Positions 5,132-53,098 of a DNA stretch of 64,000 nt are shown here, piece after piece (positions within the stretch are counted from its first letter, which is position 1; each line of letters opens with the position of its first letter). The position numbers and the translations under genes are program-made. Source of the DNA: Candidatus Peribacteraceae bacterium (GTDB lineage: Bacteria; Patescibacteriota; Gracilibacteria; Peribacterales; Peribacteraceae); NCBI GenBank assembly GCA_030750465.1, contig JASMHZ010000002.1, forward strand, positions 1,948 to 65,947, in the 5' to 3' direction. The notes beneath the pieces were generated by a model. It worked only from the letters and a program-made list of their open reading frames with translations. It was not told the origin of the DNA and ran no database searches.

Positions 5132-5282
5132 GTCTGAACCTTGATTTTTTCCACACGTAGAGCACGTCTTCGACGTGCGATGTAAACCAATAGCATTGAT
5201 CGCAGGTCTGGATTCGACAAGCTCACCACAGGGAAGACCTGCTCTCATCCATGATAAATAGATCGTGAATCAGGATTCAGAC
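5132..5282. mobile_element. MITE-like element, copy 1 (~151 bp)
   Basis: Terminal inverted repeats GTCTGAACCTTGAT and ATCAGGATTCAGAC. Internal hairpins GCACGTCTTCGACGTGC and GCAGGTC...GACCTGC. Roughly 80 percent identical, in reverse orientation, to 39363-39514. Confidence 0.7.
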
Positions 5283-5351
5283 AGATGGTGAACAAATAAA
5301 GAACCTGCACTCTAGCCATATGTGTGGTTTTGACGTAGAATAGGAAGAGAT

Positions 5352-5458: not shown

Positions 5459-5535
5459 CGGGGCGTAGCTCAGTTGGCTAGAGTACCTGCTTTGGGAGCA
5501 GGGGGTCGCTGGTTCGAGTCCAGTCGCCCCGACCA
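5459..5535 (+). tRNA. tRNA-Pro (anticodon TGG), CCA encoded
   Basis: Manual cloverleaf: acceptor stem CGGGGCG/CGCCCCG, anticodon stem CCTGC/GCAGG, loop TTTGGGA, T-loop TTCGAGT. Confidence 0.93.
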
Positions 5536-26133: not shown

Positions 26134-26232
26134 ATAGCTTTTAGCTTTTAGCTTGGTTAGCTTTAATTAGTGGCAATAAATTGGTGATTACAGGCTGAAG
26201 CTAGTGAAGCTAAAAGCTATAAGCTAAGCTAT
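26134..26232. repeat. inverted repeat built from AGCTTTT/AGCTAAA words in a divergent promoter region
   Basis: Left arm atagcttttagcttttagcttggttagcttta. Right arm gaagctagtgaagctaaaagctataagctaagctat. Confidence 0.7.
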
Positions 26233-26240
26233 TGGTAATT

Positions 26241-27590
26241 ATGATAGACAAAACAATCATCGATCGCACCCTCTCCTCACCTCAAGGAGAGTCAGGTTAT
26301 AAAGTGGTTGAAACACTCACTGATGCTGGATTCGACACATGGTGGGTGGGAGGATGTGTAAGAGATATGATGATGGGGGAAGTTCCAGATGATATTGATA
26401 TTGCAACAGAAGCGTTACCCGAGAATATAATCGGGTTGTTTAAAAAAACTGATGAAACTTCAGCAAAATTTGGATCAGTCCTTGTGTCTCTTAAAGGCTC
26501 TGTATTTGAAGTAACTACATTCAGGCAAGATGACACTGCATCTGATGGCAGGCATCCGGAGTCCGTTAAATTTGGAAAGCGTGAGGAAGATTCGGTAAGG
26601 CGCGACTTTACGGTTAACTGCATGTACTTAAATCCTATATCCGGAGATCTGTTCGATCCGCATAAAGGAGAAATTGATTTAAATGAAAGACTTATCAGGT
26701 TTATCGGAGATTCTGAAGAGAGGATTGAACATGATGCACTTAGACTTTTGAGGGCAATAAGGTTTCGAGCTCAAATAGATGGGCAATATCACCCGGAAAC
26801 TTTTGAAGCTTTGCATAAGAAAGCAAAGAACATAAAGGTCCTCTCCGGCACGAGGCGATTTACGGAACTTGAAAAGATGCTTATGGGACCTCATCCAAAT
26901 CGAGCCTTTGAGGATCTGTGGGAAACGGATGTTATTGAGCATCTGGTTCCGGAGCTTCATGCATGCAAGGGCATTGCTCAGCCTGGGACTATGCATGAGG
27001 AGGGAGATGTTTGGGACCACACGTTGGATGTAATTTCTAAATTCACGGAAGACCATGAGGCGGACGTAAGGTGGGCAGCACTGCTTCACGACATTGGGAA
27101 GCCAAAGACATTTTCGATCGAGGCAGATCGAATTCACTTCAATGAACATGCTCCGGTTGGCGGAGATATGTCAAAGGAAGTTTTGGATAGGCTCCAATGT
27201 ACAGCTAAGAGAAGGGACAAGATCGCATGGCTTATAAGCCACCATATGACGATGTCCACGTACGGAGAGATTGATGATAAAAGGAAGGCGCACTGGTACT
27301 TCCATCCATGGTTTATAGAGCTTATACAGCTCTTCTGGCTTGATGCTGCTGGAACTGAACCACAGTGTTTTGATTTGTACGAGTCGATAATTAAGGATTA
27401 CAACCAATTTCTGGACGCCCATCCTCGCCCCAAAAAGCCCATTCTTTCCGGCGATGAGGTTATGGAGATCATGGGAATAGAGCCGGGCGCTCGAGTTGGA
27501 GAGCTATTGGAGAAGTTAAATAAAGCTCAGATCAGCGGTGAAGTTAAGTTGAAGAGAGAAGCTAGAGAGTATCTGAAAAACATCAAATGA
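26241..27590 (+). CDS. cca: CCA-adding enzyme / tRNA nucleotidyltransferase with an HD domain
   Basis: GGCVRDMMMGEVPDDIDIAT head domain, RFRAQ, and HD motif LLHDIGKP. The ORF track lists a TTG at 26232. Confidence 0.88.
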   Translation: MIDKTIIDRTLSSPQGESGYKVVETLTDAGFDTWWVGGCVRDMMMGEVPDDIDIATEALPENIIGLFKKTDETSAKFGSVLVSLKGSVFEVTTFRQDDTASDGRHPESVKFGKREEDSVRRDFTVNCMYLNPISGDLFDPHKGEIDLNERLIRFIGDSEERIEHDALRLLRAIRFRAQIDGQYHPETFEALHKKAKNIKVLSGTRRFTELEKMLMGPHPNRAFEDLWETDVIEHLVPELHACKGIAQPGTMHEEGDVWDHTLDVISKFTEDHEADVRWAALLHDIGKPKTFSIEADRIHFNEHAPVGGDMSKEVLDRLQCTAKRRDKIAWLISHHMTMSTYGEIDDKRKAHWYFHPWFIELIQLFWLDAAGTEPQCFDLYESIIKDYNQFLDAHPRPKKPILSGDEVMEIMGIEPGARVGELLEKLNKAQISGEVKLKREAREYLKNIK

Positions 27591-39045: not shown

Positions 39046-39363
39046 ATGATAAGAGATCTACTGGAAAACGCATCCATAATCGAGATCGTTGCTACGTTTG
39101 TAGCCCTGGCATTAATTGCTGCAACTATCCTTTGTTTGGTTTACATAATTGTTGGAGGCATAACTTTCATTCTCTCTGCGGGGAATGAAGAAAAAATTAA
39201 GAAGGCAGTACATACAATAAGGTTCGCAATCATAGGACTTTTTGTATCTTTCATTGCGTTCTTCATAGTTAAATTCATGGCAGTACTTCTGGATATTCCA
39301 TTTGATCTATCATTTAGCTTAATTATAGATCTCGTGGGCGATATCTTTAGTGCGCTTGAATAG
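39046..39363 (+). CDS. small two-TM protein, T4SS-pilin-like (TrbC/VirB2-like) family common in CPR
   Basis: LVYIIVGGITFILSAGNEEKIKKAVHTIRFAIIGLFVSF fits the GG..(Y/F)I.SAG....K.A...I..AIIGL pattern of that family. Confidence 0.5.
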   Translation: MIRDLLENASIIEIVATFVALALIAATILCLVYIIVGGITFILSAGNEEKIKKAVHTIRFAIIGLFVSFIAFFIVKFMAVLLDIPFDLSFSLIIDLVGDIFSALE

Positions 39364-39514
39364 TCTGAACCATGATTAATCCATTATTTACATAAATGAG
39401 AGCAGGTCTTCCCTGTGGTGAGCTTGTCGAATCCAGACCTGCGATGTATTGACATGTTATAATCGCACGTCGAAGACGTGCTCTTCGTGTAGGTAAAAAT
39501 CACAAGGTTCAGAC
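39363..39514. mobile_element. MITE-like element, copy 2 (152 bp), filling the gap between two stop codons
   Basis: TIRs GTCTGAACCATG and CAAGGTTCAGAC, with the same internal hairpins as copy 1. The first base is the G of TAG (39361-39363). The last 6 nt are the Val codon and TGA of rpsP. Confidence 0.75.
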
Positions 39515-39994
39515 ATCTGATTCTTCTTTCTTAGCTTCTTCTTCAGCTGGCTTTTCTGCTGGAGCTTCTTCGTTGGCTGGGGCTGGTTCTTCTGAAGCTT
39601 CAACAGGCTTTTCATTTGGTTTATCTTCAGCTGGAGCTGGTTCATCGCCACCACTTAAATCTTCGACCTTCTCGGCCGGGGCCTCTGCAGGAGTTTCTTC
39701 TTCAGTCTCCTTCTTCTTTTTCTGCTTTGTGTACCTGAGGATATATTGATCCATCCCATCCATTCCATCTTTCTTAAGAATTCTTGCAAGTGTATCGCTT
39801 GGTTTAGCTCCCTTTTCCATCCAATATTTAATTCGGTCTTGCTTTAATACCAAATGAACAGGATCTCTTTGTGGAATGTAATTACCAACAGTTTCGAGCG
39901 ACTTCTTTTTTACAGGATCGGATTTCTCGGCCACTACAACCTTGTAAGTGGCTTCTTTATTTTTGCCTGTGCGCTGGAGTCGGAGTACTAGCAT
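39509..39994 (-). CDS. rpsP: 30S ribosomal protein S16 with an ~80-aa E/P/A/K-rich C-terminal extension
   Basis: MLVLRLQRTGKNKEATYKVVVAEKSDP...GAKPSDTL is the bS16 core. The remainder is low complexity. Confidence 0.9.
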   Translation of the reverse strand: MLVLRLQRTGKNKEATYKVVVAEKSDPVKKKSLETVGNYIPQRDPVHLVLKQDRIKYWMEKGAKPSDTLARILKKDGMDGMDQYILRYTKQKKKKETEEETPAEAPAEKVEDLSGGDEPAPAEDKPNEKPVEASEEPAPANEEAPAEKPAEEEAKKEESDV

Positions 39995-43648: not shown

Positions 43649-43805
43649 ATAAAAGAAGGAAAGAACTAAAGAAAGAAAGGAAGATTAAAAAGAGGAAAAG
43701 AATTGAAGAAAGAAGGAAAGAATGAAAGCTTTTTTCTTTAATAATCTTTTTCCTTAAATCTTTTATCTTTCTTTTTCTCTTTTATTCTTTCTATCTTTCA
43801 TTCTT
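43649..43805. repeat. purine-arm/pyrimidine-arm hairpin element R1
   Basis: An A/G-only arm, centre AAAGCTTTT, then a T/C-only arm. 43708-43789 is the exact reverse complement of 49029-49110. It lies between convergent stop codons. Confidence 0.8.
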
Positions 43806-46677: not shown

Positions 46678-46810
46678 TATAAAAGAACGAAAGAAAGAAA
46701 TGCTTCAAGAGAAAAAGGAAGATTAAAATGAAAAATGTTTTATCTTCTGATTTTTTTATCTTTGGGCTTCCTTTCGTTCTTTCATTCTTTCGCTCTTTCG
46801 TTCTTTATTT
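46678..46810. repeat. purine-arm/pyrimidine-arm hairpin element R2
   Basis: Same architecture as R1. Its reverse complement aligns with R3 over ~120 nt, with the first 33 nt exact. Confidence 0.8.
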
Positions 46811-47817: not shown

Positions 47818-47936
47818 AATAAAGAACGAAAGAGCGAAAGAATGAAAGAATGAAAGGAAATCTAAAAGATCAAAAGATTAAAGCATTTTTCCTTTCAATC
47901 TTCCTTTTTCTCTTGATACATTTCTTTCTTTCGTTC
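47818..47936. repeat. purine-arm/pyrimidine-arm hairpin element R3
   Basis: An inverted copy of R2 on the other side of fbp. Confidence 0.8.
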
Positions 47937-49007: not shown

Positions 49008-49152
49008 TATAAAAGAAGGGAAGAAGGGAAGAATAAAAGAGAAAAAGAAAGATAAAAGATTTAAGGAAAAAGATTATTAAAGAAAAAAGCTTTCATTCTT
49101 TCCTTCTTTCGTTCTTTTATTCTTTCTTCAGTTCTTTCCTTCTTTCGTTCTT
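49008..49152. repeat. purine-arm/pyrimidine-arm hairpin element R4
   Basis: Contains the 82-nt exact inverted match to R1. Confidence 0.8.
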
Positions 49153-50217: not shown

Positions 50218-50388
50218 TGAAGAATAGTAAAAAGAAGGAAAGAAGGGAAGAGTAAAAAGAAAGAATAAAAGATAGAAAGAAGGGAAGGAAGATTAAAAAG
50301 AAAAAAATGCTTTAATTCTTTCTCTCTTTCCTTCTTCCTTTCTTTCTTCAGTTCTTTCTCTCTTTTTAAGTATTTCTTTCCGCCGTTC
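50218..50388. repeat. purine-arm/pyrimidine-arm hairpin element R5
   Basis: The same architecture, with centre GAAGATTAAAAAGAAAAAAATGCTTTAATTC. Confidence 0.75.
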
Positions 50389-51850: not shown

Positions 51851-52003
51851 ATCTGAATCTTGATTTAGCTCTCACACGGAGAGCAGGTCTTCGACCTGCG
51901 ATGTTGTTGATAGAAATCGCACGTCGAAGACGTGCTCTCAATCATGTTAATCTTTTAATAATGCCTGTCCTGAGCTAGTCGAAGGGTGAATCTTGTTTCA
52001 GAC
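51851..52003. mobile_element. MITE-like element, copy 3 (~153 bp, diverged)
   Basis: Ends ATCTGAATCTTGAT and ATCTTGTTTCAGAC, with hairpins GCAGGTCTTCGACCTGC and GCACGTCGAAGACGTGC. The last 6 nt are the Val codon and TGA of recA. Confidence 0.65.
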
Positions 52004-53098
52004 TGCAATTGTCATAATCTTCTTTTCAAGCTCCTGAGCAAGCTTCTTATCATCAATCAGTGTCTGTCTAGCCTGTTCCCGCCCTTGCCCCAGAGTATTT
52101 TCGCCGGTCTTAAAGTATGCTCCTGACCTCTCAATTAATCCATATTTAACTCCCAAATCTATGATATCTCCTTCCTTGCTTATTCCTTGTGCGTAAAGAA
52201 TATCAAATTCTGCCTGTTTGAATGGGGGGGCAATCTTGTTTTTAACGATCTTTGCGCGTGTTCTGTTTCCAACTACTTCCTGCCTGTCGGCCGTAGCCTT
52301 GGCGGAGGCTGGCATTTTACTCGTTTTATCGTCAGAATTTGCCGTGGATGGTGCTTTCTCCAATATTTTATCAATTCTTCTTACGTCGATTCGCACAGAC
52401 GAATAGAACTTAAGGGCATTGCCTCCTGTTGTAGTCTCGGGATTTCCAAACATTACTCCTATCTTCATTCTTAGCTGATTTATGAATATAACAGTACAGC
52501 TTGTTTTGCTGACTATAGATGTAAGTTTTCTGAGTGCCTGACTCATTAGTCTCGCCTGAAGCCCCATATGGCTGTCTCCCATCATTCCTTCGATTTCTGC
52601 TCTTGGAGTAAGGGCTGCAACAGAGTCGATAACTATAATGTCTATTCCTCCCGACCTGACAAGAGTCTCTGTAATTTCCAAGGCCTGTTCTCCATCATCT
52701 GGTTGAGATACCAAAAGGCTATCTACATCAACTCCTATCTTTCGGGCATATTGAGCATCAAGTGCATGCTCAGCATCGATGAATGCTGCTTTGCCTCCGG
52801 CTCTTTGTCTTTCCGCTATTGCATGCAAGGCGAGAGTTGTTTTACCGGATGACTCCGGTCCGTATATTTCGACAATGCGTCCTCCGGGAAGCCCTCCTCC
52901 CAATGCAATATCCAGCGATAGGGATCCTGATGGATACCTTTGAATATCAATTATATTATCTTTGTTCATTTCCATGATTGCACCGACTCCGTATTGCTTT
53001 TCTATACTAGCGAGAGCAGCAGTTACAGAGTCTAGCTTTGCATCATGTGGAATTGAGTTTATTTTTTGTTGTGGAGTTTTTCTTGTTGTCTTTGGCAT
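51998..53098 (-). CDS. recA: recombinase RecA (with a ~24-aa insertion)
   Basis: [22 protein letters not shown] and [10 protein letters not shown] take the start at MPKTTRK (53098). The ORF-track extension to 53191 is unlikely. Confidence 0.93.

Follow-up and report, generated by a model that had tools for sequence, protein, structure and literature searches.

The stretch of DNA that we analyzed (the window; 64,000 nt, contig C22, positions 1948 to 65947 of assembly G000) comes from a genome of 1.0 Mb in 64 contigs with 42% GC. On its minus strand lie recA, whose product has a match in all 41 of the 41 relatives searched (E values down to 1e-236), and rpsP, each of which shares its last codon and stop with the end of a hairpin element. 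Three copies of this element occur in the window, the one beside recA being degenerate. The features are as follows.

5132..5282, no strand: element E5, 85% identical to E6, in reverse orientation
5158-5246, no strand: inner REP doublet in E5, same 23-nt hairpin
39046..39363, plus strand: T4SS-pilin-like gene (Pfam PF18895, 27.8 bits)
39363..39514, no strand: hairpin element E6, GTCTGAACC perfect at both ends, flanked by the pilin-like gene and rpsP
39398..39484, no strand: inner REP doublet in E6, the loop of its first hairpin carrying an insert of ~25 nt, CCCTGTGGTGAGCTTGTCGAATCC
39509..39514, minus strand: rpsP last codon and stop, GTC TGA, coinciding with the E6 terminus
39509..39994, minus strand: rpsP (bS16), with a low-complexity acidic tail, ending TCA GAT GTC TGA (...KKEESDV*)
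51851..52003, no strand: hairpin element E8, 3' of recA, degenerate, with ends ATCTGAATC and GTCTGAAAC
51879..51938, no strand: inner REP doublet (REPIN-like) in E8, AGAGCAGGTCTTCGACCTGCGAT ... ATCGCACGTCGAAGACGTGCTCT
51998..52003, minus strand: recA last codon and stop, GTC TGA, coinciding with the outermost six bases of the E8 terminus
51998..53098, minus strand: recA, 366 codons from ATG (MPKTTRK...)

The recA frame ends ATT GCA GTC TGA (...KKIMTIAV*). A sequence-only reading of this DNA had pointed out that recA and rpsP both finish in GTC TGA, the outermost hexamer of the element's terminal inverted repeat, and its coordinates and sequences are correct. GTCTGA ends only 3 of the 770 long open reading frames (ORFs) of G000, and two of these are recA and rpsP. 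We ruled out an alternative code in which TGA is a sense codon, given that TGA closes 202 of the 770 long ORFs and that orthologs stop at the same place via TAA or TAG.

The pilin-like gene is convergent with rpsP, and the final G of its TAG (39363) is also the first base of the GTCTGAACC of E6, so that E6 fills the gap between the two stops with no spare base, as the same reading had described. Orthologous E6 copies stand at the same site in two relatives, G005 and G007, where the TA|G junction of the pilin-like gene is found as well; in G002, which lacks the element, this gene ends GAA TAA. The third copy, E5, adjoins no stop codon; its neighbors are the 5' end of a gene on one side and a tRNA (5459-5532) on the other.

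The RNA of E8 on the recA strand is predicted to fold at -52.2 kcal/mol (z = -5.4) with the terminus as the stem base, and that of E6 at -47.3 kcal/mol (z = -4.5). Neither stem is followed by the T-run of an intrinsic terminator; ATCTGATT and TGCAATTG follow instead. A search of the whole window against Rfam at gathering score returned five tRNAs and no match to an element. Hairpins of another family, with purine and pyrimidine arms, lie 0 to 1 nt from stops elsewhere in the window (43649-43805, 46678-46810, 47818-47936, 49008-49152, and 50218-50388, beside the ORF ends 43648, 43806, 46677, 47937, 49153, and 50390). The packing of hairpins against stops without a spacer is a general feature of the G000 genome.

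The outer shell and its terminus

A genome-wide search of G000 identified eight complete elements of 97 to 533 bp with GTCTGAACC...GGTTCAGAC ends, together with four partial ones, and their flanks are unrelated. The terminus of this outer shell is (TT)GTCTGAACC[A/T]TGATT. The arms consist of ~8-nt units (xxxxGATT, CACGGATTA or GCAGATAGC types), and each element folds as a single long hairpin with the terminus at its base. The 15-mer GTCTGAACC[A/T]TGATT is present in seven of the eight genus genomes; each of the seven has 6 to 61 such ends and roughly 5 to 30 shell copies. A reversed control pattern gave 0 to 1 matches. All of the compared genomes are draft metagenome assemblies.

We tabulated base positions around the terminus for 64 independent ends, taken from 32 independent elements that carry the 15-mer at both ends as terminal inverted repeats. 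Conservation runs outward past the hexamer, with T at position -1 in 88% of the ends, T at -2 in 69%, a weak preference for C at -5, and no preference farther out; positions -2/-1 are CA at recA and AT at rpsP. A longer inverted repeat, or an extended "TTGC" shell, was considered and rejected, given that the two flanks of one element agree at 2.75 of 10 positions from -12 to -3, versus 2.83 of 10 between elements. Direct repeats of 2 to 5 nt at offsets 0 to 6 did not exceed shuffled pairings, and we thus found no target-site duplication. The sequence-only reading had called the element a MITE. This label is doubtful: the terminal inverted repeats are there, but the absence of a target-site duplication means that the element fails a defining feature of classical MITEs, and we found no transposase-carrying partner between the same ends.

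The terminus reliably supplies stop codons in two frames, and often in the third. One frame gives GTC TGA, another CC(A/T) TGA. Most copies lie 2 to 15 nt past a stop or away from any stop, with TTGTCTGAACC perfect at both ends.

Several further arrangements were observed around these elements. Termini can be tandemly duplicated, e.g., as TTTGTCTGAACCCACTTGTCTGAACC and TTGTCTGAATCACGGATAATTGTCTGAATCACGG, at ends 74b_L, 80_R, and 86_L of G006 and end G001_P7 of G001, and a 192-aa ORF at L086 (G006) ends in an outer solo GTC TGA AAC, 10 nt before the full terminus. At L081 (G006:C16, 586-624), just two bases, TT, separate the start of a copy from the CCA that closes a tRNA gene, and the elements therefore also abut the ends of RNA genes. 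Tandem arrays of ~560-aa paralogs, each with a GTCTGAACC element 5 to 15 nt after its stop, occur at G000:C10:14068-19715 and at L073 (G006:C58). Read on its opposite strand, the terminus is ATGGTTCAGAC; the ATG in this sequence is where the longest ORF of the following paralog begins in five G006 copies and one G000 copy, so the terminus may also offer a start codon in these arrays. Another small mobile or hitch-hiking palindrome, TGTATGTACAATGTACATACA, was seen repeatedly in several genomes, either next to GTCTGAACC elements or within them (G000:C5:570-594, the E4 loop at G000:C10 19244-19388, G000:C63:~26225-26264, L032, which is the G007 rpsP copy, and L090). At G000:C5:24074-25115, three copies of a ~90-nt unit, CACTCTAGCCATTTGTTTGATTATTTATATAATGAGTGAAACTTCGGGAT, adjoin element E2, the third leading into a tRNA, and next comes an IS200-like TnpA gene that is intact (MRSFKAQSHVMWDCKYHIV...). 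A similar word, CACTCTAGCCATATG, lies to the right of E5 at window positions ~5308-5322.

An inner REP doublet is nested in the shell

All three window copies hold an inner inverted doublet of the 23-nt REP-like hairpin AGAGCACGTCTTCGACGTGCGAT. The same hairpin occurs, singly or doubled, at five other places in G000. Two of these flank a RAYT-like gene (G000:C4:21174-21416, minus strand; Y1_Tnp, 33.7 bits against a cut-off of 23), at C4 20966-21025 and 21501-21523, and the further copies are at C4:24594-24665, C16:~1199, and C41:~368. The region G000:C4:20966-21523 has a REPtron-like layout, with the RAYT-like gene between a AGAGCACGTCTTCGACGTGCGAT doublet and a single copy. The combination that defines a REPIN-RAYT system, REP doublets plus a RAYT gene flanked by the same REP, is thus present for the inner doublet only, and the Y1_Tnp genes of G000 are not bounded by GTCTGAACC. 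What the sequence-only reading took for a MITE is an outer shell with a nested REPIN, and the REPIN-RAYT layer does not explain the stop-bearing outer shell. E5 and E6 share 85% identity from end to end, which argues that the composite moved as a unit.

The ~25-nt insert CCCTGTGGTGAGCTTGTCGAATCC of E6 is missing from the G005 copy. The window copies contain a short inserted motif, CCTGAGCTAGTCGAAGGG or CCCTGTGGTGAGCTTGTCGAATCC, whose place differs from copy to copy (51961-51985, and the hairpin loops at 39410-39434 and ~5195-5220), and more matches are present on contigs C5, C11, C16, C21, and C64. These further matches suggest that the motif is one more small repeat family, the third to be nested in these elements.

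Gene ends coincide with the terminus at one offset

We surveyed the element ORF lists of G000 and 27 elements of G006 and G007, with gene ends called from ORFs of at least 70 codons and paralogous gene-plus-element arrays counted once each, and obtained 24 independent ends facing gene 3' ends. Their stops were distributed as follows.

Stop at terminus positions 4 to 6 (xTC TGA): 7/24 ends, the commonest arrangement
Second-frame CCA TGA stop within the terminus: 1/24 ends
Stop overlapping the terminus by G alone (TA|G): 2/24 ends
Spacer of 2 to 28 nt from stop to terminus: 14/24 ends

Seven ends at a single offset depart strongly from a uniform offset (P = 8e-7), and the ORFs that run into the terminus use its three frames 7, 0, and 1 times (P = 0.003). 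Merged ends are also more frequent than expected from the 6.8% of genes that have a compatible end (P = 8e-4). The stop-codon association proposed by the sequence-only reading is therefore real within the genus. It did not extend to 86 ends from other phyla, which showed no excess of stops in the terminus: the 49 flank codons were fully open in 4, 6, and 6 cases per frame, at or below a rough, uncomputed chance estimate of ~8 per frame. This difference indicates that the overlap is a property of the compact lineage rather than of the element. The hairpin family that fills a given slot varies between species at several gene ends.

Most of the tested gene ends predate the element

We compared orthologs with and without the element for six genes: recA, a Cas4-like nuclease gene, an EamA transporter gene, a CoA-binding gene, rpsP, and a histidine kinase gene. 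The sequence-only reading held that the present C-termini of RecA and bS16 are both element derived. For RecA, the comparison in substance refutes this claim. Within the genus, RecA orthologs have the same length with or without the element; their tail after the conserved E-I is 5 to 6 residues whether or not a terminus is present, and it invariably closes with a hydrophobic residue (L, I, V, or F). The gene ends ATC TGA ACC in G007, ATC TGA ATC in G006, and TTC TAA CC in G005, and in three other genera it ends GCA ATC TAA, GCG ATC TAG, and ACA ATT TAA. We dropped G005 as an "empty" site representing the ancestral state; its recA end is more likely a deletion remnant (TTCTAACC...ATAT). There (L003, 2555-2585), only TTCTAACCTTTCCATAT separates recA from the conserved ATTTTCCACAT of the dnaB upstream region, which looks like the 17-nt footprint of a deleted element.

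Orthologs of the Cas4-like nuclease (PDDEXK_1) end in ...DVAAV*, except in G004 (...DVAAA*) and G002, where the frame reads on. In G000, G005, and G007, which have no element there, the gene ends GCT GTT TGA TAC, and in G001 it ends GTC TAG; with an element, it ends GTC TGA ACC in both G006 and G003, followed by different arms. The EamA transporter gene ends ATT TAA in G004 and G007, TTA TGA in G000, and, with the element, ATC TGA ACC in G006. The CoA-binding gene (CoA_binding_3) ends GTC TAA in G000 and GTT TAA in G003. Its end in G006, ATG GTT TGA GCATT GTCTGAACC, compares with ATT GTC TGA ACC in G007 at the same protein length. This one site thus shows an unmerged (G006) and a merged (G007) form, the difference being 11 nt between near-identical hexamers.

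Altogether, a Val/Ile-stop was already at the same position in element-free orthologs of four of the six genes (recA, Cas4-like, EamA, and CoA-binding), against a background of compatible ends of 52/770 in G000 (6.8%; P = 3e-4). Moreover, the terminus begins with A (ATCTGA) where the ancestral residue is Ile and with G where it is Val, suggesting that the first bases come from the host. We found no displaced host codons on the far side of an element.

The remaining two genes gave a different result. In four more distant species (G004, G006, G001, and G002), rpsP ends in ...KKE(E)* or ...EEKQ*. The G007 gene still has a TAA of its own, in frame and six bases ahead of the terminus (TAA GCC ACT GTC TGA). 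In G000 and G005, which have an identical layout here, the sequence TCA (G/A)AT GTC TGA adds three codons. Thus, the claim of an element-derived C-terminus probably stands for bS16 in these two genomes, even though it falls for RecA. G003, which shares the TCA, was rejected as an "empty" rpsP site, since it keeps one element arm (AATCAGTGT units). The histidine kinase ends in ...RLLVV* within the terminus in G006 (GTC TGA ACC), in ...RLPIN* in G000 and G007, and in longer tails in the others. Among the six genes tested, only rpsP and the histidine kinase gene, both with unconstrained tails, appear from these alignments to have ends changed by the element. Separately, a MurJ-like gene of G007 ends in ...TSEP* via the second-frame CCA TGA of a terminus.

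Some shell copies carry a PDDEXK_3 gene, and the terminus is widespread

Where an element has coding cargo between its termini, the only gene that we identified is one for a PDDEXK_3 (GxxExxY) nuclease. In G000 it occurs in element E3 (C8:3970-4347), which holds the only PDDEXK_3 gene of that genome, and in G007 at L090 (Pfam PDDEXK_3 match, 5e-38); a 128-aa ORF of the same size inside element L077a of G006 is a candidate. In two further genera (G021, L113; G041, L112), a family search placed PDDEXK_3 genes within arms of the GATT or CAGAT type that have the same TT GTCTGAACC ends. The gene is patchy, being found in 3 of 31 genera of the family, and gene-less hairpin copies outnumber coding ones. 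The gene therefore lies within the same arms and termini as the gene-less copies, as in a PDDEXK_3 hairpin cassette, and the link between terminus and PDDEXK_3 is firm in this lineage. At L113 (1893-1925), a second, inner, degenerate terminus, TTGTCTGGACCATGATT, lies beside the start of the PDDEXK_3 gene, which suggests nested or duplicated ends.

More broadly, the pattern TTGTCTGAACC-N2-3-GATT-N4-5-GATT gave at least 120 stretches when one genome per species was scanned, against a rough, uncomputed chance estimate of a few tens. The matches come from Bacteroidota, Poribacteria, Desulfobacterota, Nitrospirota, Chloroflexota, and other phyla, indicating that the terminus is very widespread. The exact 10-mer was near one of six intact PDDEXK_3 genes in four terminus-holding genomes of other phyla, and no PDDEXK_3 gene was beside the motif at four single-match loci from other phyla. 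Our literature search found no paper on the motif, or any that ties the PDDEXK_3 family to repeats beyond its fold classification.

Discussion

The elements resemble several known systems in part. They share with REP/REPIN sequences and their RAYT (Y1 HUH) transposases the inner doublet, a REP-flanked Y1_Tnp gene, and the lack of a target-site duplication. However, the outer GTCTGAACC shell mostly has no REP and is tied to another enzyme fold, and the stop overlap is a feature of the shell. The shell can be compared with the GxxExxY/PDDEXK_3 family (Pfam PF13366, NCBIfam TIGR04256) and the hairpin cassettes around it, the coding copies lying between the same termini. Correia/NEMIS elements of Neisseria, ERIC, RUP, and BOX are likewise small, have terminal inverted repeats and many copies, and carry no transposase gene. 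Correia/NEMIS and other bacterial MITEs lie near genes, are co-transcribed with them, and can alter gene ends. Correia elements derive from DDE-type transposition and duplicate a TA target, whereas the window elements have no 2- to 5-nt duplication at offsets 0 to 6. The palindromic elements of Rickettsia (RPE) are also palindromic repeats of a reduced genome that overlap coding sequence; they insert in frame inside ORFs and add peptide segments without destroying the genes. Here, in contrast, the overlap is limited to the last codon and the stop, and the protein is usually unchanged.

The DNA uptake sequence of Neisseria, GCCGTCTGAA, which occurs as inverted pairs just after genes and in thousands of copies per genome, has the heptamer GTCTGAA in common with the terminus. 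The elements studied here number 6 to 61 ends per genome (seven genomes) and always have GATT-type arms, and the resemblance is probably coincidental. On the basis of copy number and architecture, we dropped both the uptake sequence and integron attC (GTCT(G)AAC) as candidates. Cassettes in the style of 23S rRNA intervening sequences, with a four-helix-bundle gene in the stem, similarly hold a small gene or nothing within long complementary arms of short tandem units, but they differ in arms and cargo protein and have no GTCTGAACC terminus.

Four things can be read directly from the sequences, namely, the junctions themselves, the comparisons of ancestral states, the lack of target-site duplications, and the excess of stops at one offset. 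The explanation that we favor, to which we give about an even chance, is compaction in a streamlined genome, in which loss of the spacer merges the terminus with the host stop and the terminus acts as a stop-codon backstop. The repeats would be gene-less copies of the hairpin cassette, set directly downstream of genes in this lineage. In a tightly packed genome of ~1 Mb, the few bases between host stop and terminus would be lost wherever their loss costs nothing. A host end of the form (A/G)T(C/T) T(A/G)A, encoding Val or Ile and a stop, could then collapse onto the look-alike hexamer of the terminus and leave the protein unchanged, through a small deletion between the near-repeats or through recombination at them. 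We infer both this deletion or merging step and its direction, from unmerged to merged. At recA, an existing Ile/Val-stop would have collapsed onto the hexamer in this manner. An unconstrained tail could be cut short, or its host stop lost, without harm, because the terminus halts translation within one to four codons. In rpsP, the TAA apparently became TCA, and translation would then run through (G/A)AT GTC to TGA.

Compaction gains support from the short spacers of 2 to 15 nt at most gene-adjacent ends, which together with the two one-base TA|G overlaps form a graded series. It is also favored by the Val/Ile-stops of element-free orthologs in four of the six genes, the two states of the CoA-binding site, the apparently host-derived first bases of the terminus, the rpsP comparison, and the open-frame counts at the 86 ends from other phyla. 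We also counted in its favor that other hairpin families abut stops with 0 to 1 spare bases (e.g., at the ORF ends 43648 and 43806). Other observations weigh against it. The excess of merged ends over what is expected beside random genes hints at some site preference. The Cas4-like site is merged in two non-sister species with different arms, so compaction needs either two events or an old junction whose interior was swapped. Finally, the look-alike at the EamA gene is weak, given that ATTTAA and GTCTGA match at 3 of 6 positions.

In a less probable but serious alternative, the element integrates site-specifically at RTYTRA hexamers resembling its own end, mostly at Val/Ile-stop gene ends where insertion is nondisruptive, and from that moment the hexamer of the host doubles as the outermost six bases of the terminus. 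The absence of a target-site duplication is as expected for non-DDE insertion, the host A or G is kept at terminus position 1, the Cas4-like gene end has been occupied twice, apparently independently, and the weak conservation outside the terminus (C at -5, TT at -2/-1) could represent a target preference, all in addition to the excess of merged ends over compatible gene ends. Counting against such integration are the majority of copies, which lie 2 to 15 nt after a stop or off any stop with TTGTCTGAACC perfect at both ends, and the G006 element that lies 5 nt past an intact GTTTGA and not on it. E5 and several G006 copies are in 5' or divergent regions, and the excess in one frame is absent among the 86 ends of other phyla. 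A more specific, rather unlikely version proceeds from the cargo gene: TTGTCTGAACC may be the recognition site of the PDDEXK_3 nuclease, which would move hairpin cassettes without target duplication and integrate them at RTYTRA look-alikes.

We regard as improbable the view of the sequence-only reading that the element inserted at or into the extreme 3' ends of genes, that only insertions re-creating a stop survived, and that the C-termini are hence element derived. The three extra rpsP codons of G000 and G005, the G006 histidine kinase end, and the G007 MurJ-like end all fit this view, as does a terminus with stops in two frames and often in the third. Against it, the last residue and stop position predate the element in recA, where the ortholog comparisons already refute it, and in three other genes; the frames are used 7, 0, and 1 times rather than one third each; and displaced host codons are missing from the far sides of elements. 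Least probable of all, and in our judgment very much so, is a selected function, in which the hairpin is a transcription terminator or a stabilizer of mRNA 3' ends that needs the stop in its stem base, the overlap being adaptive. The strong hairpins predicted on the terminus would suit this function, as would the several unrelated arm families at the same gene ends in different species and the junctions that are conserved between species while interiors differ. Yet most copies have a spacer, some are upstream of genes, the stem has no T-tract after it, and no Rfam family matches.

In summary, compaction, the reading we prefer, shows how repeats and essential genes can coexist in an extremely compact genome, with a repeat end that would be built for being pushed onto a stop, or for replacing a lost one, without harm to the protein. 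The ortholog comparisons also correct a conclusion that is easily drawn, namely, that the C-termini of RecA and other core proteins were made by the element. If the PDDEXK_3 reading were true, the family would be a stop-codon-homing selfish element that reuses the last codon and stop of its host as its own end. The sharply defined 11-base terminus, conserved across phyla, offers a concrete substrate for testing the large, uncharacterized GxxExxY/PDDEXK_3 family.
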